From positions 3,611-67,610 of the forward strand of contig WREI01000002.1 in the NCBI GenBank assembly GCA_009779405.1: a stretch of 64,000 bases of DNA. The letters run 5' to 3'. The notes beneath the pieces are model-generated. The model searched no databases. It had not been told where the DNA came from and saw only the letters and a program-made list of their open reading frames with translations. Position 1 is the stretch's first letter. Each line of letters opens with the position of its first letter. Source of the stretch: Clostridiales bacterium (lineage in GTDB: Bacteria > Bacillota > Clostridia > Christensenellales > CAG-138). Below are positions 14,809 to 59,591 of the stretch, piece after piece. The translations under genes were made by a program, and so were the position numbers.

Positions 14809-15714
14809 ATGCACATGGCAACAGAAAATCAGAATCTGCCTGTTCGGCAGTATACGAAGCAGTATATGCGTATTCTCAAAGCTGTTTTTGCGGTAAAGAA
14901 TGCGTTTCAAAGACTGCTTTCCCCCTTGCAAACGCTTGACGGCGTCGAACAAAACAAGACGGCGTTTTCCGTTAAAACGTGCAATACACCCGTCGTCGTC
15001 GGTGATTACAACACGGGCGCAAATGTCGGCTTCGGCACTGGCACCGGCAGCAGCTCGCGCTTCGGCAACAGAACAGAAATAATCTACGGGGATGTTGATG
15101 TTCCCTATGACTACACCCTTGCCATCCATGAGGGCATTGACCGCTACACGGTCAACAATAGGCTCGATGCCGCCGTGGCGGATCGTCTCCGGCTCCACAG
15201 CGAGGCGCAGACACGCAAAATGAACAATCGCATCGGCGCGTTCATTTCCGCGAACGCAGGCAAAGTTCTGGCGCTTGTCGGCATGGCCGAGGATGCGCTT
15301 ACGGCATTGTTTGATTCTGCGGCTGCGCACTTCACCAATTCTGAAGTGGACGCTTCGCTGGTGGCATATGTCACGCCGGAGTTGTACAACGCCCTTGTGA
15401 ACCACGGTCTCGCCGTCCGCGAAAAGGGCAGCGGCGTCGACATCGACAGCAACGGAATCTACAAGTTCAAGAATTTCGCGATTGAATCCACGCCCAACAA
15501 ATACTTTGCTACGGGGGAAGTTGCGTATTTCGGCGCAGACGGCATCATAATCCCGTTCGTGGGCATCGTCACAACGCGCACGATTCCGAGCGAAGACTTT
15601 GACGGCAATGCCTTGCAAGCAGCGGCCAAGGGCGGCACGTTCATGCTGGACGACAACAAGGTGGCGTTGGTCAAAGTCACCTACACCGACCCGCTTGAGC
15701 CGGAAGAACCGTAA
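14809..15714 (+). CDS. Major capsid protein
   Basis: ~300 aa directly after the scaffold gene; strong SD AAGGAG; call based on position. Confidence 0.8.
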   Translation: MHMATENQNLPVRQYTKQYMRILKAVFAVKNAFQRLLSPLQTLDGVEQNKTAFSVKTCNTPVVVGDYNTGANVGFGTGTGSSSRFGNRTEIIYGDVDVPYDYTLAIHEGIDRYTVNNRLDAAVADRLRLHSEAQTRKMNNRIGAFISANAGKVLALVGMAEDALTALFDSAAAHFTNSEVDASLVAYVTPELYNALVNHGLAVREKGSGVDIDSNGIYKFKNFAIESTPNKYFATGEVAYFGADGIIIPFVGIVTTRTIPSEDFDGNALQAAAKGGTFMLDDNKVALVKVTYTDPLEPEEP

Positions 15715-15729: not shown

Positions 15730-16089
15730 ATGTTTGCAAACTACCCATTTTACAAGGCTAACGGCGGCAGGCTGCCCGAAGACCGCTACAAGGCATTCAT
15801 CAGCAAGGCATACAACGCTATTCTAAGTCAGACACGCGGCGCGGCGAAAACCGCGCCCGCGTCAATGAAAAACGCTCTTAAGTTATGTGAATGCGATCTT
15901 GTGGACCTGCTTGCGGGCTATGCGGAAAGCGCGGCGGAGTTGCCGGGGAACATCAAATCGGTCCATAACGACGGGTATATCGTTACCGCTGAGAGCGGCA
16001 GCAGTGCCGAAAGCGTTGGGAGTGATATTCATGTGATATGCGCGCGCTATCTGACCTCGCCCGTGAATCTCATGTGCAGGTGGTTGTGA
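15730..16089 (+). CDS. Putative head-tail connector / head completion protein
   Basis: 119 aa after the capsid gene; SD GAAGGAGGG; function assigned by position only. Confidence 0.5.
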   Translation: MFANYPFYKANGGRLPEDRYKAFISKAYNAILSQTRGAAKTAPASMKNALKLCECDLVDLLAGYAESAAELPGNIKSVHNDGYIVTAESGSSAESVGSDIHVICARYLTSPVNLMCRWL

Positions 16090-16676
16090 TGATTGGGTTT
16101 GATAAAACAATTACGATCTATAACCAACGTTATGATCCTGCGACACGGGAAACCACATGGCCCAAGATAGTCATAAACGGCTGTAGCTGGACAGGTCATC
16201 AGCGGGTGACTATTGGTGAGGGTCTGACCTCAAACGACGGCTACAGCGTCCGTATACCGCTTGATTCGGTCTCCATTGCGGATACATATCCGTTGTGGCA
16301 GGCTGGAGTGGAGTACAGCGTTGGCGATGTCGTCAAGTATGGGGTAAACCAGTACGGCAAGCCGCAACTGTACAAGGTTCTGCAATACCACACCAGTCAA
16401 GCGGACTGGACCCCCGCCACAACGCCGACGCTTTATGGCGCTCTGGACATAGTCGCGGGCGGCTTCTTGCCGCAGGACAAGTATAGGGAACTGGCGGATC
16501 CGACGGGCTATTGGACGGCTCAAAACGGCGATTACGTTGTGCTGGGCGAAGGCGTATCGGTTGTGAACGGGATCACGGATATTACGCGGAAATATACGGA
16601 CTGCTTCAAGGTGACGACCGTCAACACCGCGAATATACACCGCTTGCTGCCGCATCTGAGAATCGAGGGAAAGTAA
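16089..16676 (+). CDS. Head-closure / minor capsid-type connector protein carrying an internal CBM5/12-like insert
   Basis: ATGA overlap start at 16089. Residues ~66-118, YPLWQAGVEYSVGDVVKYGVNQYGKPQLYKVLQYHTSQADWTPATTPTLYGAL, fit the W..G..Y..GD.V.Y....Y......H.S...W.P pattern. Confidence 0.7.
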   Translation: MIGFDKTITIYNQRYDPATRETTWPKIVINGCSWTGHQRVTIGEGLTSNDGYSVRIPLDSVSIADTYPLWQAGVEYSVGDVVKYGVNQYGKPQLYKVLQYHTSQADWTPATTPTLYGALDIVAGGFLPQDKYRELADPTGYWTAQNGDYVVLGEGVSVVNGITDITRKYTDCFKVTTVNTANIHRLLPHLRIEGK

Positions 16677-16677
16677 C

Positions 16678-17100
16678 ATGTCAAGCGTTGTGATACGTTT
16701 TCACGTAATTAACACCCCCCGGGGGGCGGTATACCACGTACCAGCGGCGGCAGGTGGAGAGATAACGGCTAAACTTGATTTTAATCCCGAGTTTGGCCAG
16801 GTCTATACAGACAGGTTAAGCAGAGCACAAATGTATGTTGATAGCGAAGTGCTGCGATTCTGCTCCGCTCGTGTCCCATTCAAAACCGGTATGCTGCAAA
16901 AATCCGGTATCCTTGGAACTGTGATCGGCAGTGGCGAGATCCAGTATGTCGCTCCATACGCAGCGCGGCAGTATTACCGTACAGCGCAAACAAGGATATA
17001 TGATGCGAATCGCGGCGCGTTTTGGTTTGAGCGTGGGAAAGCTGCGGAAAAAGATCGTATACTGCGTGGCGCTATGAGAATCGCGGGAGGTGGGCAATGA
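16678..17100 (+). CDS. HK97 gp10-like tail/neck completion protein
   Basis: ARVPFKTGMLQKSG and YAARQYY motifs; position. Confidence 0.6.
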   Translation: MSSVVIRFHVINTPRGAVYHVPAAAGGEITAKLDFNPEFGQVYTDRLSRAQMYVDSEVLRFCSARVPFKTGMLQKSGILGTVIGSGEIQYVAPYAARQYYRTAQTRIYDANRGAFWFERGKAAEKDRILRGAMRIAGGGQ

Positions 17101-17540
17101 CCGAAACTATGCTCGGCGCTCTCTTTGAGTTCTTTGGAGTCTGCCCGCTGATTTCCGGCAATCGTTTGAACATTGATTATTTGCCAGAGGGAACCAAGCA
17201 GGCGGGCATAGAATACGCGATAGGCCTATTCCCGACAGATGAAGTGCTGCGCAGATACGTGGACGGCGGGGCGCATTGCCGCCTTCCATTTGTGCTAAGC
17301 AGCGTAAACGATTACGGCCCCGATGTTAGGCAGAATATCGAGAATTCCGGCTTCTATGATGCGTTTGCGGAATGGGTTCGCGAACAGTCTAAAAAGCGGG
17401 CGTTCCCAGCTCTCCCTAATGGGCTGACTGCACGCAGCATGCGCACGATCGGCCCGGGCTATCTATTCCAGCCGGACGCTGACGCAGGAAAATACCAAAT
17501 ACAATGCGAAATCGAATACTACAGAAAAGGGGACAGATAA
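17097..17540 (+). CDS. Hypothetical tail-completion protein (by position)
   Basis: 147-aa ORF with ATGA overlap to the upstream gene, immediately before the tail tube gene. Confidence 0.5.
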   Translation: MTETMLGALFEFFGVCPLISGNRLNIDYLPEGTKQAGIEYAIGLFPTDEVLRRYVDGGAHCRLPFVLSSVNDYGPDVRQNIENSGFYDAFAEWVREQSKKRAFPALPNGLTARSMRTIGPGYLFQPDADAGKYQIQCEIEYYRKGDR

Positions 17541-17541
17541 C

Positions 17542-18042
17542 ATGACAGTAGCCGAATTAATGACCGGCAAAACACCGAATCCGGCGTTTGAAGGGTTTGC
17601 CACTGCTGATGATATGGTGTTAGCCATTGATTTCACCGGGGAGGCAACAAATGTAAATGACTACCTTGTCGCGCAGATCGGCATCACAGAGGCATCCGGT
17701 ACGCTGAACGCGCAGACACAGACCAGTCAATACCTGCGCACGGGCGAGGTGACGACCAAAACGGGCACTTCGCGCGAGTTCACGATCAGTGGTGATCGGT
17801 ATGTGGGTGACGGTTTCCAAGACGCTCTGCTCAGCCACAAACTCAAATACGGCACCGGGCAGGCGGTTGTTAAGCCGTACGCCTATTTCAACCTGCTCAC
17901 CGGCAAAGGGGAAAAGGGCAACGGCTCCATCGTCGTGGGTGACGACCTGGGCGGCGCCGCCGGTTCCAACGCCGGTCTGACCGCGACGCTTACCTCCACG
18001 GTCAAGCCGGATGAGTACACCTACGCGCCGAAAACGCCGTAA
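17542..18042 (+). CDS. Major tail (tube) protein
   Basis: 166 aa, followed by a terminator, chaperone genes and the tape measure; composition is typical of TP901-1/phi13-type tube proteins. Confidence 0.75.
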   Translation: MTVAELMTGKTPNPAFEGFATADDMVLAIDFTGEATNVNDYLVAQIGITEASGTLNAQTQTSQYLRTGEVTTKTGTSREFTISGDRYVGDGFQDALLSHKLKYGTGQAVVKPYAYFNLLTGKGEKGNGSIVVGDDLGGAAGSNAGLTATLTSTVKPDEYTYAPKTP

Positions 18043-22472: not shown

Positions 22473-23351
22473 ATGAACGAACAAACAAGATTCAGCTATG
22501 AAACCGCCTACGGTAGATTGGATTTTGCGCCGGATAGCCCGTTTTGGATTTCCGATATTGATGGGATCAGCAGTGTGGATATATCTGTTTTCGATACACA
22601 AAGCAGCGGGCAAATCGGATCAAGCATAACCGGCCAGAGCGTGAAGCCGCGGCTTATACCAATTTCCGGTTCCATATTTGATCCCGTGATTGAAAATCGC
22701 GAAATACTGATCTCCGCGATTCCTCCAGAAATACCCGCTATTTTCACGGTATACCAAAACGGGAAAGCATGGTATTTGGACGTTGTACCGGAGAAAACAC
22801 CGGACATCCTTCCCGGAAACGGCGTACAGTTTTTCCAGTGCAGGCTGAAAGCCGCTTATCCTTATTTTCGATCTGTTGAGAAAAGTCATCAGCTTCTTTT
22901 CGGTCTCAAGGCTCTGTTTGAGTTTCCGTTCTATACGGGCGGCGAATGGTATATAAGTCAGCTTATCAGCGGATTCGCTTATGTGCAGAATGATAACAAC
23001 GTCGAGATACCGTTCAGAGTGGAGTTTACGGCCCGCGGTGAAACATCGAATCCGCAACTGTATAACGTTGATACCGGAAAAAGGCTGGCCATTCGGAAAT
23101 CAGCTATAGAACCATATGTTATGGTTGCAGGCGAGAGGATCATCATCTCCACAATATTCGGCGAGCGTGGCGTTATGATCATATCGCCGGAAGGAATCAT
23201 TACTAACGGGTTTAAGTATTTGGCGCTTGACAGTAATCTGACTATGCAAGTAAAGCCGGGTATAAACACATTTCAGGTCAGTGCTTCTGAGAATGATTTC
23301 AATCTCGACGCGCGCATCGATATACCGGTGGGGGTGCGATCCGGTGTTTGA
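22473..23351 (+). CDS. Distal tail protein (Dit, phage tail family)
   Basis: 292 aa directly after the TMP. Confidence 0.75.
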   Translation: MNEQTRFSYETAYGRLDFAPDSPFWISDIDGISSVDISVFDTQSSGQIGSSITGQSVKPRLIPISGSIFDPVIENREILISAIPPEIPAIFTVYQNGKAWYLDVVPEKTPDILPGNGVQFFQCRLKAAYPYFRSVEKSHQLLFGLKALFEFPFYTGGEWYISQLISGFAYVQNDNNVEIPFRVEFTARGETSNPQLYNVDTGKRLAIRKSAIEPYVMVAGERIIISTIFGERGVMIISPEGIITNGFKYLALDSNLTMQVKPGINTFQVSASENDFNLDARIDIPVGVRSGV

Positions 23352-24444
23352 TATTTACGTATTCGATATTGCCCGTGAACCACTCGGCTTGCTGGAACAC
23401 ATAGATTCCATCCAATGGCTGGAAAATTATCAGAGCGCCGGTGAAGTGAAAATAGTCGCGCGACCAACGGGAAAGAACCTCGTTATGTTAGCGGATGGAC
23501 ATCGACTGTTTAAAACTACCGGAGACACAGCAGCACGCGTTTGCGAAACAGAAACGAATAGAACAAAAGAAGGGCCACGCATAACCGCGCGGGCGCAAAT
23601 CACATCTATCCTACTCTCGGATCGCGTAGTTATGGCCACAGAAAACATAACGGACGCCGAGCAGGGTATGTATACGGCCTATGAGAACAATCGCAGGGGC
23701 TTGCCGGTGGAAATAGCCCCCGTCGATGGATACGGGCGCGCCGCGGTCATGGAGCGAACATGGGGCGATGTGCTCGGGTTGTGGGAAACTGTTGCTGGCG
23801 CGTCCGGCTTAGGTTTTAAGGTGCTATTCGACCCCGAAACGGGAATCGAAACGTCAAAGGTGTATTGCGGCATTGACCGATCCATTCACGGCAGCAATGA
23901 CTATATCGGTTACTTCGGGACGGATATTGGGAATGTGGAGAATCCCGAAATCGTGTCCGGCTCGTCCAATTACAAGAATGTAGCTGTCGTTGCGGGCGGC
24001 GGCGATGGCGCGGATAGATATGTTCGCGTTGTTTCGCTCGGACCCGTCACGGGAGAAAACCGCAGGGAGCTCTTTGTTGACGCGCGCGATTTGCAGCGCA
24101 CATATCAAGTAGCAACCGACACGGGTACGGTTGACGAAAATGGGAACCCGATCATCGACTACGAAACAAAGACCTATACGAATCAAGAATACGATGATCT
24201 GTTGGATGGCCGCGGATTTGCGAAGCTGGCGGAGCATATGCAAAATCTGTCTATAAAATGTAACATTCTGCAAAATGAAATTCGGTATGGCGTGGATTAC
24301 TTTTTAGGTGACAGGATGCCCGTTCGACTTGTGGAGTTCGGAATTACCGTATCCGCTGTCGTGTCATCCGCTCTGCATATACAGGAGAAAAGCGGCGAGA
24401 CAATAAAAATTACCCTAAGCGATTTTAAGATAATGGAGGTTTGA
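23344..24444 (+). CDS. Tail-associated (Tal-like / ReqiPepy6 Gp37-like) baseplate protein
   Basis: GTG at 23344 overlaps the Dit stop. ~366 aa following Dit. Family name is from memory of similar Clostridia prophage proteins. Confidence 0.55.
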   Translation: MFDIYVFDIAREPLGLLEHIDSIQWLENYQSAGEVKIVARPTGKNLVMLADGHRLFKTTGDTAARVCETETNRTKEGPRITARAQITSILLSDRVVMATENITDAEQGMYTAYENNRRGLPVEIAPVDGYGRAAVMERTWGDVLGLWETVAGASGLGFKVLFDPETGIETSKVYCGIDRSIHGSNDYIGYFGTDIGNVENPEIVSGSSNYKNVAVVAGGGDGADRYVRVVSLGPVTGENRRELFVDARDLQRTYQVATDTGTVDENGNPIIDYETKTYTNQEYDDLLDGRGFAKLAEHMQNLSIKCNILQNEIRYGVDYFLGDRMPVRLVEFGITVSAVVSSALHIQEKSGETIKITLSDFKIMEV

Positions 24445-24446
24445 AA

Positions 24447-25277
24447 ATGGCAGGTATTTGTTTTCCTCTCGATCTCACAAAATATGACGCAAAAGCGCTT
24501 GGCGCTTGGCTTTGTACGCGAACGCGGGGCGTATTCAGTGCAGATACTGATTTCAAAATTACGGCGGCTGGCGGCATGACAATCACGGTTGACGCTGGAA
24601 TTGCGTGGATGATGAAAGAACAGTTTTGGGGTACGGTTGTATGCGAACCCAACCTGCAATCGTTTGTCCTCGATGTTGCGGATGGCACGTTGAACCGCTT
24701 TGATGCTGTGTGCCTGCGCATTGATAAATATACGAACGACTATGAAACAATTATTAAGAGCGGCGGCCTAAGCAATAGCCCTGAAATACCGATGCCGATA
24801 CAAGATGACCCGTATTTTGAAGAAATTATCGTTGGCGCTGTACTCATTGAAGCGGGAACGATGACGGTTACGCAGGATAAGGTATTCGATACGCGGTTAG
24901 ATGAAACGCGGTGCGGCGTAATGCGGGATGGCGTTACGGGGATTCCTACACAAGGGCTACACGATTCTTGGAATGCGTGGTTTACAAGCATCAAAGAGAT
25001 AGTAGATGACGCTATCAATGCGGCATATGACGCCGCAGACGCGGCAAACAGCAACGACCTGGTTGTGCACAACGCAGACCCGACCGCACATCCCGACATA
25101 CGGCTGCAGATTGCGTATTTGGAGGGCATGAACAGTTATCTAAGTGCGCGAATAGCACTGCTTGAAGCAACCATTTCAAGCGGCGGCAATGCGTTTGTTG
25201 CAGACCTAATAGGCCTTACAAACGTAAATATTGATGACGGAACATGGATAATTGGCGCATTAAGCGCGCAGGGATAG
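24447..25277 (+). CDS. Tail fibre / baseplate protein
   Basis: ATG at 24447 after GGAGG; HNADPTAHPDI motif common in phage fibre proteins. Confidence 0.55.
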   Translation: MAGICFPLDLTKYDAKALGAWLCTRTRGVFSADTDFKITAAGGMTITVDAGIAWMMKEQFWGTVVCEPNLQSFVLDVADGTLNRFDAVCLRIDKYTNDYETIIKSGGLSNSPEIPMPIQDDPYFEEIIVGAVLIEAGTMTVTQDKVFDTRLDETRCGVMRDGVTGIPTQGLHDSWNAWFTSIKEIVDDAINAAYDAADAANSNDLVVHNADPTAHPDIRLQIAYLEGMNSYLSARIALLEATISSGGNAFVADLIGLTNVNIDDGTWIIGALSAQG

Positions 25278-25286
25278 GAGGAAAAA

Positions 25287-27458
25287 ATGGCACAATCAAT
25301 CGGTAATCTGCCTATTGGCGCAAAAGTTAAAGACACAAATACGAAATTCCTTGGCGCGACTATCGAGTGGAGTATAGCGGCTAAAAACCACGCCGGATAT
25401 CCGAACAACTCCGTCACTCTCTTGGCGGAGAAAGGGCTACGGGCGCAGGCGTATGACGCCGCCGAGCCGACAAACCCCGTATCGGCCTACCAAACGGACG
25501 GCAACGCTATCTATTCGCTATCGAATATACACCAGTGGTTGAATAAAAACGGAAGCCCTTGGTTTGTCAATCAACACACCTTTGACGCGCCTCCCAACAA
25601 AACAAACCCGTATGACAATATCGCAGGGTTCCCGTCGAATTTCTCCCCGCAGTTGCGCGCGGCGTTAATGCCCACAACGCTCAATGTATACGTTGCCGGT
25701 TCCACGCTGGGAAACATAATCGCGAGCGTGTTTTTGCCGAGCATCATTGAAGTTGGCGTCCCAATCAGCGCCAATCAAGAAACGGGCGCACAATACCCTA
25801 TATTCGCCAATGACGTCTCACGGCTGTGTTATCCTACCGCGCAAGCCGTAAGTGCAAATCAGCACACCTCCGGTCCTACCTCCACATCAGTCGCGCACCA
25901 ATGGATGCTGCGATCGATTCGCGGCACCGCATCTACATACGTTATATCAAAAAACGGCACACGCGACCAATACACGGGCAGCCAGGCGAACCAAATGTTT
26001 CGGCCCGGTATCAATATTCCGCTGACAACACTTGTGAGCGACACGCCCGACACTAACGGCTATTACACCATCGTTTGGAACTCCGCACCCACCACGCCGC
26101 CAAGCATAAACGTGCCGACAAACCTAATATCGGGGCAAAGCGTGCTAATTAGCTGGGGCGAGAGCACCGACCCGGACGGGGACACGCCAATAAGCTATTG
26201 GCTTGAATATTCTATCAACGGCGGTAGCTTTGCGAGTTTATTCAACGGTATGGACACATCTTACACTCACTTAATAGGTGCATGGAGTACCGTTCAATAC
26301 CGTGTTATGGCGGTGGATTCGTTTGGCAATCAAAGCAGTTGGCTGGCGAGCCCCGTGCGCACGGTATCGAACAATAACCCGCCAACGATAAGTGGGAGTG
26401 ATTCCGATTTGGGCGTGAAAACAGCGCCATTCTCGCAGACGTTTTCGGTTAATGATGTGAACGCAGGCGATACATTGACGGTTACAACGCAGCTAAACAG
26501 TATGATATTGCAGACGATACCGAACGCGATACGAAATAATGTATACAGCATAGACTTGACACCGATACAGTTTTATTCCCTTGCGAGCGGCGAACACACG
26601 CTAAAAATCACAGTATCAGACGGCGCAGCGACTGCAACACGCACATACACATTCACGCGCAATGTTCAATCTATACGGTTCAGCATATCCGAAGATACCG
26701 GCCTAAACAGAGCCGAAACGGTCCAGATAATGCTGGATACAACCGCTTCTAATGTCCTTATTGAAGCACGTAACAACGGCGCAGACCCCGCAGCCGTTTG
26801 GGAAACGGTAACAAACGGAGTTGCACACACGTTTGTCAACACGGAAAACGCCGCTATGAACTGGCGGCTTGACGTTCGAGTGACGGTAACGCCGCCAATC
26901 GGGCAGACAGTAACCGTAACAGGCATGAGCGGAATATACACCTTTGAATATACGGCGAACATTCCGACAAATACGCAGTATGTCACGGCCTATACGAACC
27001 TAACCCCCTCGGACGGATACTCCATCGAACCGGACAGCGCAATCGAGCTTGCCGTATCGAACTTCGGACGCGAATCTATAAACGCCGCCGCATATAGTTC
27101 CAGACACGCTATATTCTTGTACAGTTGGGCGATAAAATGCCCTCCGTGGTTGCAGATTCGGTCATTAAGCGGCTACGATACTTACACGCTTGGCGTTTTG
27201 TTTGGGGAATTCACGCAAACTGAACTTGACAATATGGAAAGCGAAGCCGACGCCTCGCAGAATTGGGAGCACTTTACCATCACATTTGACGGCGAGACTG
27301 TACGATTGACGGGCCGGAATAGCCTATCGTTTGTTCTGTTAGGCATGCACGGCGGTGGAAACGGGATAGATGCTGCATGCTATCTGTACAACCCAAAGAC
27401 CTTTACGACGCCCGCCGAAATCGACTTTATGGAACTGGTAAAAATTTATGTCGGATAA
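25287..27458 (+). CDS. Receptor-binding / tail fibre protein with fibronectin type III-like domain
   Basis: The segment PPSINVPTNLISGQSVLISWGESTDPDGDTPISYWLEYSINGGSF..VQYRVMAVDSFGNQSSW is FN3-like. Confidence 0.7.
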   Translation: MAQSIGNLPIGAKVKDTNTKFLGATIEWSIAAKNHAGYPNNSVTLLAEKGLRAQAYDAAEPTNPVSAYQTDGNAIYSLSNIHQWLNKNGSPWFVNQHTFDAPPNKTNPYDNIAGFPSNFSPQLRAALMPTTLNVYVAGSTLGNIIASVFLPSIIEVGVPISANQETGAQYPIFANDVSRLCYPTAQAVSANQHTSGPTSTSVAHQWMLRSIRGTASTYVISKNGTRDQYTGSQANQMFRPGINIPLTTLVSDTPDTNGYYTIVWNSAPTTPPSINVPTNLISGQSVLISWGESTDPDGDTPISYWLEYSINGGSFASLFNGMDTSYTHLIGAWSTVQYRVMAVDSFGNQSSWLASPVRTVSNNNPPTISGSDSDLGVKTAPFSQTFSVNDVNAGDTLTVTTQLNSMILQTIPNAIRNNVYSIDLTPIQFYSLASGEHTLKITVSDGAATATRTYTFTRNVQSIRFSISEDTGLNRAETVQIMLDTTASNVLIEARNNGADPAAVWETVTNGVAHTFVNTENAAMNWRLDVRVTVTPPIGQTVTVTGMSGIYTFEYTANIPTNTQYVTAYTNLTPSDGYSIEPDSAIELAVSNFGRESINAAAYSSRHAIFLYSWAIKCPPWLQIRSLSGYDTYTLGVLFGEFTQTELDNMESEADASQNWEHFTITFDGETVRLTGRNSLSFVLLGMHGGGNGIDAACYLYNPKTFTTPAEIDFMELVKIYVG

Positions 27459-27954
27459 GATATTGACGGGGAGCGCGGAGTTTTGGCCCGAACACGCAAA
27501 GGATACGGACTATATCATTTTCCGTGAACAGGACGAGGTTTTTCGCCACGAACGAGATCATACCGCAAGAGTATGCAATTTCTGCTATCGGGCAGGTCTA
27601 ACGAAAGAGGAGTATTTCGACTGGCACACCCGCTCGAACAACTGGTACCTGAATTTCGCGCCGCTCATAACGGCAGGATTCCTGGAGCGCATGGGGATAG
27701 ATATATTCGGAGAGGACAAGGACGCCGTCTATGCGATATTCCGCAAGGTTTTCGACTTCGTATACCGAAACCTCCCGCCCGAGCGCTGGAACAAATATGT
27801 GTACAGGGTGTATATCTACACTTGCTTTATGCGAAACGGCAAGCTGACTCTCACAAAGAAGCAGTTTGCCGCCGCGTTGGGGTTCAAGCAGCGGAAGATG
27901 ACGGATGCGGAAATCATCAAGGGAATGTATTCGTTCTTTGGTGCAGTATCATAA
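27448..27954 (+). CDS. Hypothetical protein with a Pol-beta-type nucleotidyltransferase-like N-terminal signature
   Basis: ILTGSAEFWPEHAKDTDYIIF (GS-x9-DxD); 11-nt overlap with the RBP gene. Confidence 0.4.
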   Translation: MSDKILTGSAEFWPEHAKDTDYIIFREQDEVFRHERDHTARVCNFCYRAGLTKEEYFDWHTRSNNWYLNFAPLITAGFLERMGIDIFGEDKDAVYAIFRKVFDFVYRNLPPERWNKYVYRVYIYTCFMRNGKLTLTKKQFAAALGFKQRKMTDAEIIKGMYSFFGAVS

Positions 27955-27964
27955 GGAGGACAAC

Positions 27965-28765
27965 ATGGCTAAAATCGGACACGCCGTTTGTGACGAAAAC
28001 GGACTGGCGCAGGGCGGGAAGCCCGGCAACCAAACGGGCCGGGAACTGCGCATTGCTGACTATTACACGAACACTAAGGGCTGGAACCTGATACGCGCAA
28101 AATCAGATGCGGTTGCTGTGCTATTGGCAAACGCCATGAAAGCCGCTTGTGGAAACTTGAATATCGGCTATTCGCAGTCCGATAGGGGCAGCTTGCAGGT
28201 CGAGGCAAAGAAGGTCAATTACGATCTTGCAGCTATTAAAACGCCGTGCAACTGCGACTGCTCGTCGTTGGTGCGTTGCTGCTGCTTTGCGGCCGGTCTT
28301 GCGCCGGGGTTGTTCAGCACGGCCAATCAAGTTAAGGTGCTGCTCGATACTGGCGCATTTGACTTGATAGCCGAACCGTGGGGCGAGAAGGATTTGCGCG
28401 TGGGCGATATCCTTGTCACTAAGACTAAGGGCCATACCGCCATCGTTGTAAGCGGCTCTGCGCCCACCGCGCCGCCACCGCCCACACCGGTAACACCACC
28501 CGCGCCCGGCACGATCGTCCTTACCAGACTGCTCAAATACGGCGTAAGCGGCGCAGACGTCATCGCGGTTAAGCGTCTGCTTATGGCAAAAGGCTTCGGT
28601 CTTAACCTTGCGACAGACGCGTACGGCAACCCGACCAACCCCAACTACGCAGGCGACACCCGCGACGCCGTGTGTCAGTTCCAAGCGCGTGTCCATCTCA
28701 AGCAGGACGGCATAGTCGGGCGAGATACCATAACCGCCCTGGGCGGGGATTGGGGGGGAAAATGA
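27965..28765 (+). CDS. Endolysin: NlpC/P60-like cysteine peptidase plus PG_binding_1 domain
   Basis: ATG at 27965 after AAGGAGGA. Has CNCDCSSLV ... KGHTAIVV (Cys/His). C-terminal LKYGVSGADVIAVKRLLMAKGF...DAVCQFQARVHLKQDGIVGRDT is a peptidoglycan-binding repeat. Confidence 0.8.
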   Translation: MAKIGHAVCDENGLAQGGKPGNQTGRELRIADYYTNTKGWNLIRAKSDAVAVLLANAMKAACGNLNIGYSQSDRGSLQVEAKKVNYDLAAIKTPCNCDCSSLVRCCCFAAGLAPGLFSTANQVKVLLDTGAFDLIAEPWGEKDLRVGDILVTKTKGHTAIVVSGSAPTAPPPPTPVTPPAPGTIVLTRLLKYGVSGADVIAVKRLLMAKGFGLNLATDAYGNPTNPNYAGDTRDAVCQFQARVHLKQDGIVGRDTITALGGDWGGK

Positions 28766-29061
28766 GTATGCTTATAACAGGCGAAATCATTGCACTTACC
28801 CTTTCGGCGCTGGCTGTTCTGTTTTCTATCATTACATTTGTGCGGACGAATAAAAAGGACACGAAATCCGACGGTGCTCATAGCGCGACTATCATAGCTA
28901 AGATAGATTTTGTCAGCACGAAGATTGGCGAAATGCAGGACACTCTCAAAGAGATAGAGGGGCGGGAAAGAAGGGACGCCGACCGCTTGACTGCGGCTGA
29001 AACAAAAATCCGCTCGATATTTTTCCGGCTAAACGCGCTTGACAAAAAGGGAGAAGCATAG
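28762..29061 (+). CDS. Membrane-anchored coiled-coil protein (lysis accessory, XhlA-like composition)
   Basis: ATGA overlap with the endolysin stop; N-terminal TM ITGEIIALTLSALAVLFSIITFV followed by a charged helix. Confidence 0.55.
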   Translation: MSMLITGEIIALTLSALAVLFSIITFVRTNKKDTKSDGAHSATIIAKIDFVSTKIGEMQDTLKEIEGRERRDADRLTAAETKIRSIFFRLNALDKKGEA

Positions 29062-29063
29062 TC

Positions 29064-29393
29064 ATGCTCGTCATCGTCGCCATACTCGGCGCCCTGTTCG
29101 GCGTGGCATTAGCGCTGACGATCTGGGCTATCACCCGCAAGCGCGGCAAGCCCGAGTTCTCCAAGATTCTGGCGACTTGGGCTGTGGTTATCGCCACGCT
29201 GTCCGTAGTCGCGTCATATGTGTTGGCAGCGTTCGGGCTTGACCCAATACAGGACTTAACGCTCGGCATCTTCTCGGTCTGCGTTGGCGACCTTGTAGGA
29301 TATTCGGCCAAGTCACTCATGGAGAAAATGAGCCGCAACAAGCACGGCCTGGACGCCGGCGGGCGGCCATACGGGGACGATAACGGCGAGTAG
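29064..29393 (+). CDS. Three-TM small membrane protein (holin candidate)
   Basis: Three hydrophobic segments in 109 aa with a charged C-terminus. Confidence 0.55.
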   Translation: MLVIVAILGALFGVALALTIWAITRKRGKPEFSKILATWAVVIATLSVVASYVLAAFGLDPIQDLTLGIFSVCVGDLVGYSAKSLMEKMSRNKHGLDAGGRPYGDDNGE

Positions 29394-29480
29394 AGATATA
29401 TATACGTCACCCTGCCCGCGCAACGAAAATTTGACCTGTTGCAACACGCGACAGGTACTAAAACAAAAGGAGAAGCACAA

Positions 29481-29738
29481 ATGAAAATCAACTGGAAGTC
29501 CAAATTGGCAAGCCGCAAGTTCTGGGCCGCGGTGGCCGCATGGATCACGTCCGTCCTAACCGCGTTTGGCGTGACGGACAACATCATCGCCCGCGTATCG
29601 CTTATCGTGGCAGGCATCGGCGCGCTGGCCATCTACATGCTTGCCGAAGCGCTTACGGATAAGGCGCGTACGAATGGCACACAAACATCTTTCGGTGTTT
29701 GGAATGCGCAGGTTGGAGAGCAACCGTCCGAAGAATAA
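29481..29738 (+). CDS. Holin (phi LC3-like family)
   Basis: ATG at 29481 after AAAGGAGAAG. MKINWKSKLASRKFWAAVAAWITSVL.. is the typical N-terminus of this holin family. Two TMs. Confidence 0.75.
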   Translation: MKINWKSKLASRKFWAAVAAWITSVLTAFGVTDNIIARVSLIVAGIGALAIYMLAEALTDKARTNGTQTSFGVWNAQVGEQPSEE

Positions 29739-29994: not shown

Positions 29995-30071
29995 TGGTCT
30001 GGGTGACAGGAATTGAACCTGCGACCTCTTGAACCCCATTCAAGCACGCTACCAAACTGCGCTACACCCAG
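29995..30071 (-). tRNA. tRNA-Pro (anticodon GGG), CCA encoded
   Basis: The reverse complement folds as acceptor CTGGGTG/CACCCAG, D arm GCGC-AGTTTGGTA-GCGT, anticodon arm CTTGA-ATGGGGT-TCAAG and T arm GCAGG-TTCAATT-CCTGT, ending A73-CCA. C1:G72 and G37 fit tRNA-Pro. Confidence 0.9.
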
Positions 30072-59321: not shown

Positions 59322-59591
59322 AGTGCCGTACACCCGTCCTTCGACGGCGGCGTACAAGCGGTATGCGCAGCGGTGGCTCCGGACAAACGTTCCCGCGGCA
59401 CACATGAAAATCCGCTTAGTGCTGCTTCCGTCAGGACCTGACACGGTTCACGGCATCATGTTGCACGGGGCTCGCCCATCAACGCTCCGTCTGCGCGCCT
59501 GCCTTATACGCAGACGTCTCGGGACGGGGATTACACCTTGCTATGGCGGATTGCAAGTTCAGGGCACCGCCAGCTCCCCGCTTAGTACGGC
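59322..59591 (-). ncRNA. ffs: Signal recognition particle RNA, long (Bacillus/Clostridia-type, ~270 nt)
   Basis: The minus strand contains the domain IV core GUGUCAGGUCCUGACGGAAGCAGCACUAAGC. 5' GCCGUAC pairs with 3' GUACGGC. A strong promoter sits 7 nt upstream. Ends are approximate. Confidence 0.8.

Follow-up and report, generated by a model that had tools for sequence, protein, structure and literature searches.

A CBM5/12 module inserted in a putative neck stopper of a clostridial prophage from a termite hindgut

Why should a small protein of a phage neck carry a chitin-binding module in its middle, and what could the module do there? The question is raised by a 195-aa protein encoded in a prophage of a Clostridiales bacterium, within a stretch of 64,000 nucleotides (contig WREI01000002.1, positions 3,611 to 67,610 of the forward strand; hereafter the window). 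An initial annotation, made from the letters of the window, had read its residues 66-118 as a carbohydrate-binding module (CBM) of type CBM5/12 set in a head-tail connector protein. Pfam assigns the protein to DUF6751 (PF20536) with 78 bits against a cut-off of 27, in two stretches that have the CBM between them, and the same Pfam scan returned no other family for the core. The protein also matches phrog_3366 (E 4.3e-24). The likely start codon is the ATG at 16089, which forms an ATGA overlap with the stop codon of the upstream adaptor gene. The parts of the gene are the following.

16089..16676, + strand: putative stopper gene with CBM insertion (head-closure protein, DUF6751; 195 aa), defined by the open reading frame (ORF) and its translation, Pfam and phrog_3366
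16089..16274, + strand: N-terminal half of the presumed stopper core, residues 1-62; DUF6751 stretch 5-62, AlphaFold predicted local distance difference test (pLDDT) 88-95
16275..16457, + strand: inserted segment, residues ~63-123, made of a short linker, the CBM5/12 and a low-confidence linker; defined by alignments with insert-less homologues
16296..16436, + strand: CBM5/12 (chitin-binding type 3) module proper, residues 70-116; defined by Pfam, PDB sequence matches and the alignment with chitinase A1 (ChiA1)
16458..16673, + strand: C-terminal half of the presumed stopper core, residues 124-195; second DUF6751 stretch, pLDDT 91-96

A composite protein of this kind could result from an erroneous assembly. 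The identical 195-aa protein is present in two ENA assemblies, in one JGI assembly and in a metagenome-assembled genome (MAG) at NCBI (MCL2670522.1, annotated as a hypothetical protein of a Clostridiales bacterium). Since three independent assemblies and the NCBI MAG agree, the protein is not an assembly chimera.

Residues 66-118 (window 16284-16442), translated in the frame of the gene, read TYPLWQAGVEYSVGDVVKYGVNQYGKPQLYKVLQYHTSQADWTPATTPTLYGA. The Pfam profile CBM_5_12 (PF02839) recognizes residues 70-116 of the whole protein (E 2.2e-8, 34.4 bits; cut-off 26.2) over positions 2-43 of its 44, and the excised segment alone gives E 9e-10 and 38.9 bits against the same cut-off. A sequence search of the PDB returned the tandem CBM12 modules of Vibrio chitin oligosaccharide deacetylases (COD; E ~3e-8) and the 45-residue chitin-binding domain of Bacillus circulans ChiA1 (1ed7, E 9.5e-4). 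As a sequence match, the assignment to CBM5/12 is far above chance level, and the module proposed at 16284-16442 in the initial annotation is borne out by a score above the Pfam gathering threshold and by the PDB matches.

The conserved positions of the family are also in place. W70, Y76, W107 and P109 are invariant in an alignment of 10 CBM sequences. With a ChiA1 sequence and numbering that we take to be correct, W70, Y76 and H101-T102-S103 align with W656, Y662 and H681-T-S of ChiA1, and W107, P109, P113 and Y116 with W687, P689, P693 and W696; the sequence so assumed agrees with the 45-aa 1ed7 match. W687 we take to be a functionally important residue of the chitin-binding face of ChiA1. 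The residues aligned with that sugar-binding face are kept both in the window protein and in P0002, a homologue that has its CBM at the same place in the loop. In the window module, Tyr (Y116) stands where the ChiA1 motif ends in Trp. The modules of chitinases and deacetylases (ChiA1, 1ED7; Vibrio COD, 4NZ1/8YFP; Serratia ChiB) belong to the same Pfam family, are of similar size and have the W...Y...H-T-S...W-x-P...P...aromatic pattern that is kept here; however, they are borne by enzymes, whereas the present module sits on a virion protein and has a longer hairpin. Solved CBM5/12 modules are small three-stranded β folds; AlphaFold predicts two strands in the present module, 81-86 and 92-96, with pLDDT 71-79, and pLDDT is 50-55 at roughly residues 101-120, that is, in the C-terminal part of the CBM and the linker that follows. 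Foldseek pairs the predicted module with Serratia ChiB (CBM5) chains (prob 0.7-0.82, root-mean-square deviation 3.3-3.5 Å, 57-59 columns), weak matches with E > 0.5.

Is the module an addition, or an integral part of the protein? A word-indexed search of 5.8 billion proteins gave 77 relatives, 72 of which have 118-151 aa and no CBM. In a profile search that yielded 123 clusters, extra sequence in the insert region was seen in three, and ~120 have ~134 aa and no insert; an exhaustive HMMER scan of 1.84 billion cluster representatives produced the same pattern, with the segment mostly absent. Since ~120 of the 123 homologue clusters are without the segment, it is a true insertion of ~61 aa and not integral to the connector fold. 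Its boundaries are clean in multiple and pairwise alignments, and it takes the place of 0-2 loop residues. The location given in the initial annotation therefore holds, whereas the extent has to be widened slightly, from 16284-16442 to 16275-16457 (residues ~63-123). Around the insert the protein resembles its relatives closely: the whole core is 62-73% identical to DUF6751 members of ~134 aa, and its C-terminal half 66-72% identical to homologues without the insert. In the AlphaFold model the N-terminal half consists of short strands and a long β-hairpin (strands 26-43 and 46-57), and the core (pLDDT 88-96) is the same as in the model of the insert-less homologue P0006, which is predicted with confidence to fold by itself (pLDDT 93, predicted template modeling score 0.87).

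The loop that received the insert lies in the most plastic region of the DUF6751 family. This region is deleted in members of 118-123 aa and extended by 8 aa in P0056 and by 51 aa in P0058. The GC content at third codon positions is 0.67 in the insert vs 0.52 and 0.72 in its flanks, so that there is no signal of foreign composition, which argues against a very recent arrival. One might still regard the insert as a neutral passenger, brought by illegitimate recombination into a tolerant loop and with no role in the virion. The rarity of the configuration (three of 123 clusters) and the deletions and other insertions that the loop tolerates agree with this idea, and phage proteins reportedly shuffle fragments extensively, which is said to be the theme of one study. 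Nevertheless, the insert keeps the frame of the gene open, the two inserts at the same site, at 42% identity, have both preserved the residues that define the family, the base composition argues against a newcomer, and the same kind of module was apparently gained in three non-sister lineages (see below). We regard a passenger without function as very improbable.

What, then, is the protein that carries the module? Its gene is the second of four small genes between those of the major capsid protein and the tail tube, as follows.

14809..15714, + strand: major capsid protein gene (301 aa); phrog_840, E 8e-125; fixes the position of the neck module
15730..16089, + strand: head-tail adaptor gene (119 aa), directly upstream of the CBM carrier; phrog_541 'head-tail adaptor', E 6.6e-10
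16678..17100, + strand: neck gene downstream of the carrier (140 aa); Minor_capsid_2 / phrog_556 in its N-terminal half
17097..17540, + strand: tail completion protein gene (147 aa); phrog_3266 'tail completion', E 1.6e-34
17542..18042, + strand: major tail protein (tail tube) gene (166 aa); phrog_820, E 3.4e-18

The order adaptor, carrier, Minor_capsid_2, tail completion, tail tube is kept in five related contigs. The arrangement from the capsid gene on is seen in loci L003-L006, L010 and L012, and the same neck gene order is found in phiCD508 gp49-gp53, a phage with a solved neck. In Virfam type-1 necks, the head-closure protein (stopper) has the place that the carrier has here. The stoppers SPP1 gp16, lambda gpFII, RcGTA g7, phiCD508 gp51 and phage 812 gp97 occupy the same slot, after the adaptor and before the tail-completion genes.

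Structure comparison points to the same identity. When the full two-domain model was submitted to Foldseek the matches were weak and mixed, so an insert-less homologue was modeled instead. Its top four matches in the PDB were all phage neck chains (prob 1.00, 0.93, 0.82 and 0.82), their identity as such having been verified for phiCD508 gp51 only, by length. The first was Mycofy1 9lwa_A (prob 1.00, E 1.1e-3, template modeling (TM) score 0.51-0.53), followed by SaPI1 9mu3_C, phiCD508 9gb5_G and XM1 7kjk_A4, with the gene transfer agent (GTA) chain 6tba_3A lower down. Of the neck proteins of phiCD508, only gp51, the 125-aa 'neck valve', agrees in length with chain 9gb5_G (124 residues). The structural relatives of gp51 include the XM1 head completion protein, the GTA stopper and the SPP1 stopper (PMC11948020). 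In BFVD, the matches beyond the uncharacterized members of the family were named head-to-tail stopper, closure knob, head-tail joining protein and SPP1 head-tail adaptor family. Like the known stoppers, the carrier core is small (~134 aa) and β-rich, has a long hairpin and finds its best structural matches among solved neck chains; in contrast to them, it belongs to the uncharacterized DUF6751, which has no detectable sequence homology to their families.

Gene order and predicted fold together support the view that the carrier core occupies the place of a head-to-tail stopper (head-closure protein) and is folded like one. The initial annotation had taken the flanks for a ~130-aa head-closure or connector protein, and this is backed by the gene order and by the fold matches to neck chains, including phiCD508 gp51. 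Some observations speak against a stopper with a displayed module. The fold matches to solved stoppers are modest (TM ~0.5, E at least 1e-3). A search of PDB sequences with the DUF6751 alignment profile gave only a spurious aminotransferase match, and hhalign of DUF6751 vs phiCD508 gp51 gave no signal (probability 0.2%). No sequence link to stopper families of the gp16/gpFII type (e.g., PF05521) was found by Pfam, by the PDB profile search or by hhalign, and as there is no sequence homology to characterized stoppers the assignment rests on fold and position and not on membership of a sequence family. The pLDDT of the CBM is moderate because only two sequences cover the module. The insertion loop is probably a peripheral, permissive surface site, its tolerance of insertions and deletions being the sole ground for supposing outward display. 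Taking these points into account, we consider it very probable that the anatomy is that of a stopper carrying a displayed CBM5/12.

Where could the module have come from? The closest matches of the insert are small phage proteins of 90-320 aa in PHROG families 27545, 30034, 18593 and 35850, all without assigned function. The usual association of CBM5/12 modules with glycosidases, mentioned in the initial annotation, is therefore not seen for this module itself, its closest relatives being phage proteins. The window module and the first of the CBMs in P0094, a phage-type protein, share 56% identity in an ungapped alignment of 59 residues (E 1e-20), and both have a hairpin longer by 6 residues, YGVNQYGKPQLYKV (YGVNxxGxPQLYKV), that is absent from enzyme-borne modules and common only to phage proteins such as P0094, P0097 and P0087. 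In Acutalibacter phage Fontainebleau the gene of one relative of the insert (L001 8911-9348) immediately precedes that of the holin, Enterocloster phage PMBT24 has a related protein, annotated ChiA1-BD, near the lysin, and a further relative (P0099) is fused to a SpoIID peptidoglycan-acting domain.

In many relatives of the insert, two CBM5/12-like modules of different type follow each other. The first corresponds to the module of the window protein; the second (WxQPTGAxDAY...WxP) is the type inserted in P0058. Such small proteins with two distinct tandem modules (P0094, P0100, P0106, P0087) make up a widespread phage family, whose members may be adhesins of the virion or accessories in lysis or at the cell wall. 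From these sequence relationships, we propose that the module was drawn from a CBM5/12 pool that circulates among phages of gut Clostridia. A tblastn search found no second copy of the module, as a possible donor, elsewhere in the 64-kb window. In the exhaustive search many phage proteins aligned beyond the CBM into residues 124-156, as if the stopper loop were a degenerate second CBM. This idea was rejected: BLASTP of the C-terminal core vs P0094 gave E 0.17-4, and the extension is alignment run-on.

Did this happen once or several times? Only three lineages have a CBM: the window protein and P0002 share the position of the insert in the loop, and P0058 has it ~15 residues downstream. The P0058 insert has 51 aa and is of a different CBM subtype, with a weak CBM_5_12 match (19 bits, E 1.4e-3). 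In a neighbor-joining tree of 130 core columns with 200 bootstraps, all three proteins have proteins without the insert as their closest neighbors. In none of the 200 bootstrap trees are the three CBM-bearing lineages sisters, and the window protein and P0002 fall within a clade of at most five taxa in 3% of them. The non-sister placement of the cores suggests independent acquisitions, and the simplest reading of the tree would be three separate acquisitions into one permissive region; on a tree of 130 aa, one old gain followed by many losses or by recombination is possible. A single recent event for both same-site inserts was rejected, as these are 42% identical, differ by a 6-aa hairpin and in the linker, and sit in non-sister cores. 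The surrounding structural genes of these phages are 44-78% identical, which indicates that the phage group is old and that the insert is not very recent.

Two side observations concern the same scaffold. The P0058 insert (residues ~75-135) starts at 'PTG', which is common to the stopper core (DPTGHW) and to the type-2 CBM (QPTGA), and could mark a microhomology junction. In BFVD, five more distant relatives of the stopper fold from human-gut viromes, A0A8S5PHG5 (247 aa), A0A8S5P2Q6 (205), A0A8S5PQ22 (174), A0A8S5M0Q3 (226) and A0A8S5QEU5 (189), are 40-110 residues longer than the core, with TM scores of 0.73-0.80 when normalized by the query and 0.43-0.63 when normalized by the target. Their extra length indicates that other additional domains have probably been grafted onto the stopper scaffold.

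The samples of origin are informative. The window protein was found in IMG 3300010882 (sample Lab288P4) and P0002 in IMG 3300009784 (sample Emb289P4). Both are metagenomes of the P4 hindgut compartment of higher termites, the first of Labiotermes labralis, which feeds on soil, and the second of Embiratermes neotenicus, a humus feeder. P0058 (locus L005 2526-3083) comes from run ERR12350121. The nearest insert-less relative of the window protein, P0013, with 73% core identity, is from the P3 compartment of L. labralis. Its phage (L011, ERZ27257304 k141_103439) shares an assembly with the window contig (ERZ27257304 k141_1677546), and the structural genes of the two are 43-78% identical. The P0013 phage and the CBM-bearing prophage are a natural pair, with and without the module, from one termite gut.

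What would a CBM do on a stopper? The SPP1 stopper is dodecameric. In the other solved cases, stoppers form hexameric rings below a dodecameric adaptor (phage 812, PMC12886913; phiCD508, PMC11948020; OE33PA, PMC13232314; also R4C). A ring-forming stopper with a module tethered to an indel-tolerant loop would place 6-12 CBM copies around the neck. The best explanation that we can offer, to which we give about an even chance, is that the neck-displayed CBM5/12 serves as an auxiliary adhesin whose likely ligand is a glycan of the host cell wall. The loop just after the long β-hairpin has received a ~61-aa cassette holding one complete CBM5/12 on short flexible linkers, and the virion would thereby have a collar of 6-12 glycan-binding modules at the neck, a number taken over from known rings. 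Binding to glycans of the β-1,4-N-acetylglucosamine type would be multivalent, of low affinity and reversible. The most likely target would be the host's own cell-wall glycan, either the peptidoglycan backbone or a wall polysaccharide, and a particle held at the cell surface in this way might be more likely to find its receptor with the tail tip. The module may act like the CBMs of neck passage structures (NPS), of 'evolved Dit' proteins and of tail-tube extensions in lactococcal and Oenococcus phages. The data establish the identity of the domain, its nature as an insertion, the stopper-like fold and gene position of the carrier, the rarity of the arrangement and its distribution over non-sister lineages; that the module faces outward, in how many copies, what it binds and what the phage gains are what we infer. 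The phage-type relatives, with a holin as neighbor in Fontainebleau and a SpoIID fusion in P0099, suggest a link to the cell wall, and the apparent repeated acquisition in three non-sister lineages may be a hint of selection.

CBMs that decorate virions are already known from NPS collars, tail-tube extensions and evolved Dit proteins, with host-cell binding shown; here the carrier is the putative stopper. The closest architectural analogy is the evolved Dit of lactococcal and Oenococcus siphophages such as OE33PA, with a CBM in a loop of a small ring protein on flexible linkers; on this model the present protein might be named an 'evolved stopper'. In OE33PA, the CBM in the Dit insertion mediates host-specific binding (PMC13232314). 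However, Dit is at the tail tip, which meets the cell first, whereas the stopper is at the neck, and the CBM fold of evolved Dit is BppA-type or known from a galectin context and not CBM5/12. The prophage has its own Dit in a separate gene (22473-23351, phrog_33), and the CBM carrier is not an evolved Dit. The NPS or collar-whisker of lactococcal 936 and P335 phages also places multiple CBM copies at the head-tail junction, as a non-essential ancillary adhesin. NPS proteins are separate proteins of 500-900 aa that begin with a BppU-like collar domain, continue with a long trimeric coiled coil and end in CBMs, and weak host-cell binding was shown for one NPS CBM (PMC6669499). The present carrier, with 195 aa, no coiled coil and an internal CBM, is not an NPS protein.

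These comparisons also bring out what tells against an adhesin for the cell wall. An NPS holds 18 CBM copies on fibers of ~36 nm, whereas the present module, inserted in frame in the stopper itself, has almost no stalk. A ~45-aa module on short linkers would have a reach of a few nanometers, under the capsid, and steric access to the cell wall is therefore questionable. In addition, insert-less sister phages live in the same termite gut, so that the module is not required there. CBM5/12 modules are, to our knowledge, characterized mainly as binders of chitin and cellulose, and we know of no established peptidoglycan binding in the family.

One possibility is that the module binds true chitin, either of the termite hindgut cuticle or of ingested fungal and arthropod debris, and keeps virions near their hosts. 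This would be an insect-gut counterpart of the 'bacteriophage adherence to mucus' by Hoc-type Ig domains. CBM5/12 is a chitin-binding family, the residues aligned with the chitin face of ChiA1 are conserved, and both same-site variants are from termite P4 hindguts; insect hindguts are lined with cuticle, and soil and humus feeders ingest fungal biomass. In contrast, the nearest relatives of the module are in phages of mammalian-gut Clostridia (a mouse-feces Acutalibacter phage and human fecal contigs), for which chitin is no obvious substrate, and the termite species and the assembly that yielded the window protein also contain sister phages that have no insert. We see anchoring to environmental chitin as possible, if rather unlikely. 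A bolder version, the 'evolved stopper', holds that phages of arthropod-gut Clostridia have repeatedly grafted different CBM5/12 modules into one loop and that the resulting collar tethers virions to the hindgut cuticle or to chitin-rich particles; to us it is doubtful. The initial annotation had thought of a Hoc-like adherence to glycans, which is a reasonable conjecture. T4 Hoc is a separate Ig-like decoration protein present in 155 copies on capsid hexamers. Its likeness to the present case is conceptual only, that of a non-essential surface domain that would weakly stick virions to environmental glycans; Hoc is Ig-like and on the capsid, whereas here a CBM5/12 insertion would be present in 6-12 copies on a neck ring.

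Alternatively, the module may no longer bind sugar and may pack on the adaptor, the capsid floor or a neighboring stopper, as a brace that reinforces the neck. The stopper of phage 812 has an additional external domain, a β-sandwich, and neck decorations are thought to stabilize junctions (PMC12886913). That extra domain is a different one from the CBM5/12 found in a loop here. A brace would agree with the short linkers, which hold the module near the ring, and with the replacement of the terminal Trp of the ChiA1 motif by Tyr. The full set of ChiA1-face residues is nevertheless retained in both same-site variants, two CBM subtypes at two positions are hard to square with one specific protein contact, and most relatives assemble without such a domain. 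The low-confidence linkers of the predicted structure also suggest a tethered, mobile module. A purely structural role is in our opinion quite unlikely, and an auxiliary adhesin for the host cell wall is the explanation that we prefer.

The rest of the window places the carrier in its setting. The late region of a siphovirus prophage, with genes for replication, packaging, virion structure and lysis, fills the window from position 1 to ~29800. All of it is on the + strand, the left end and the integrase being beyond the window. The head genes encode the small and large terminase, portal, an SPP1 gp7-like minor head protein, scaffold and major capsid protein; the tail and lysis genes encode tail tube, chaperones, tape measure, Dit, a Tal-like protein, tail-tip proteins, endolysin and holin-like membrane proteins. 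Further features are the following.

24441-25277, + strand: tail-tip ORF after the Dit/Tal-like genes; phrog_9534 'head protein'
25287-27458, + strand: tail-tip ORF after the Dit/Tal-like genes; phrog_10993 'Hoc-like head decoration', E 1e-116; Pfam DUF6273
27905-28765, + strand: endolysin; ELLD + PG_binding_1
28672-29738, + strand: three consecutive small ORFs (129, 109 and 99 aa) after the endolysin, with hydrophobic stretches
29995-30071, - strand: tRNA-Pro(GGG), prophage end, followed by host genes (M50 peptidase, ScpA)
59326-59590, - strand: bacterial large signal recognition particle (SRP) RNA; Rfam RF01854, 203 bits; consistent with a Bacillota host

The labels 'Hoc-like' and 'head protein' conflict with the position of the two genes among those of the tail tip, and the products are more likely tail fibers or receptor-binding proteins. 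The same 'head protein' label is found at the same position in Acutalibacter phage Fontainebleau. Judging from their sequences, the three small ORFs look like holin or lysis-accessory genes, placed after rather than before the endolysin. A 228-aa ORF by the tRNA (28946-29632, - strand) was considered as an integrase; it has no Pfam or PHROG match, overlaps the + strand membrane-protein ORFs and is probably spurious. The large SRP RNA and the Clostridiales-named MAG identify the host as a Bacillota-type bacterium.

In the literature searched, we met with no stopper that has an inserted CBM, whatever its family, no mention of DUF6751, and nothing on point about CBM5 or chitin-binding domains in virions or about CBMs of termite-gut prophages. 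New here are the placement of DUF6751 by position and fold at the stopper, the proposed phage origin of the module, the apparent repeated gains in one loop and the termite-hindgut source. The uncharacterized DUF6751 thereby gains a probable role as neck stopper. The insertion loop may be a natural display site that tolerates 6-12 copies of a foreign domain of ~50 aa, and in this respect could be usable for phage engineering. Should the module be only a brace or a passenger, the protein would be a minor case of domain shuffling. If it binds glycans, the stopper would join Dit, tail-tube extension, NPS and capsid decorations as a scaffold for adhesins, and binding to chitin or to the cell wall would bear on the persistence of phages on insect-gut surfaces. 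If the tethering of virions to chitin by an evolved stopper were true, it would be a chitin-based counterpart of mucus adherence, and a new way for a phage to stay in the insect gut.

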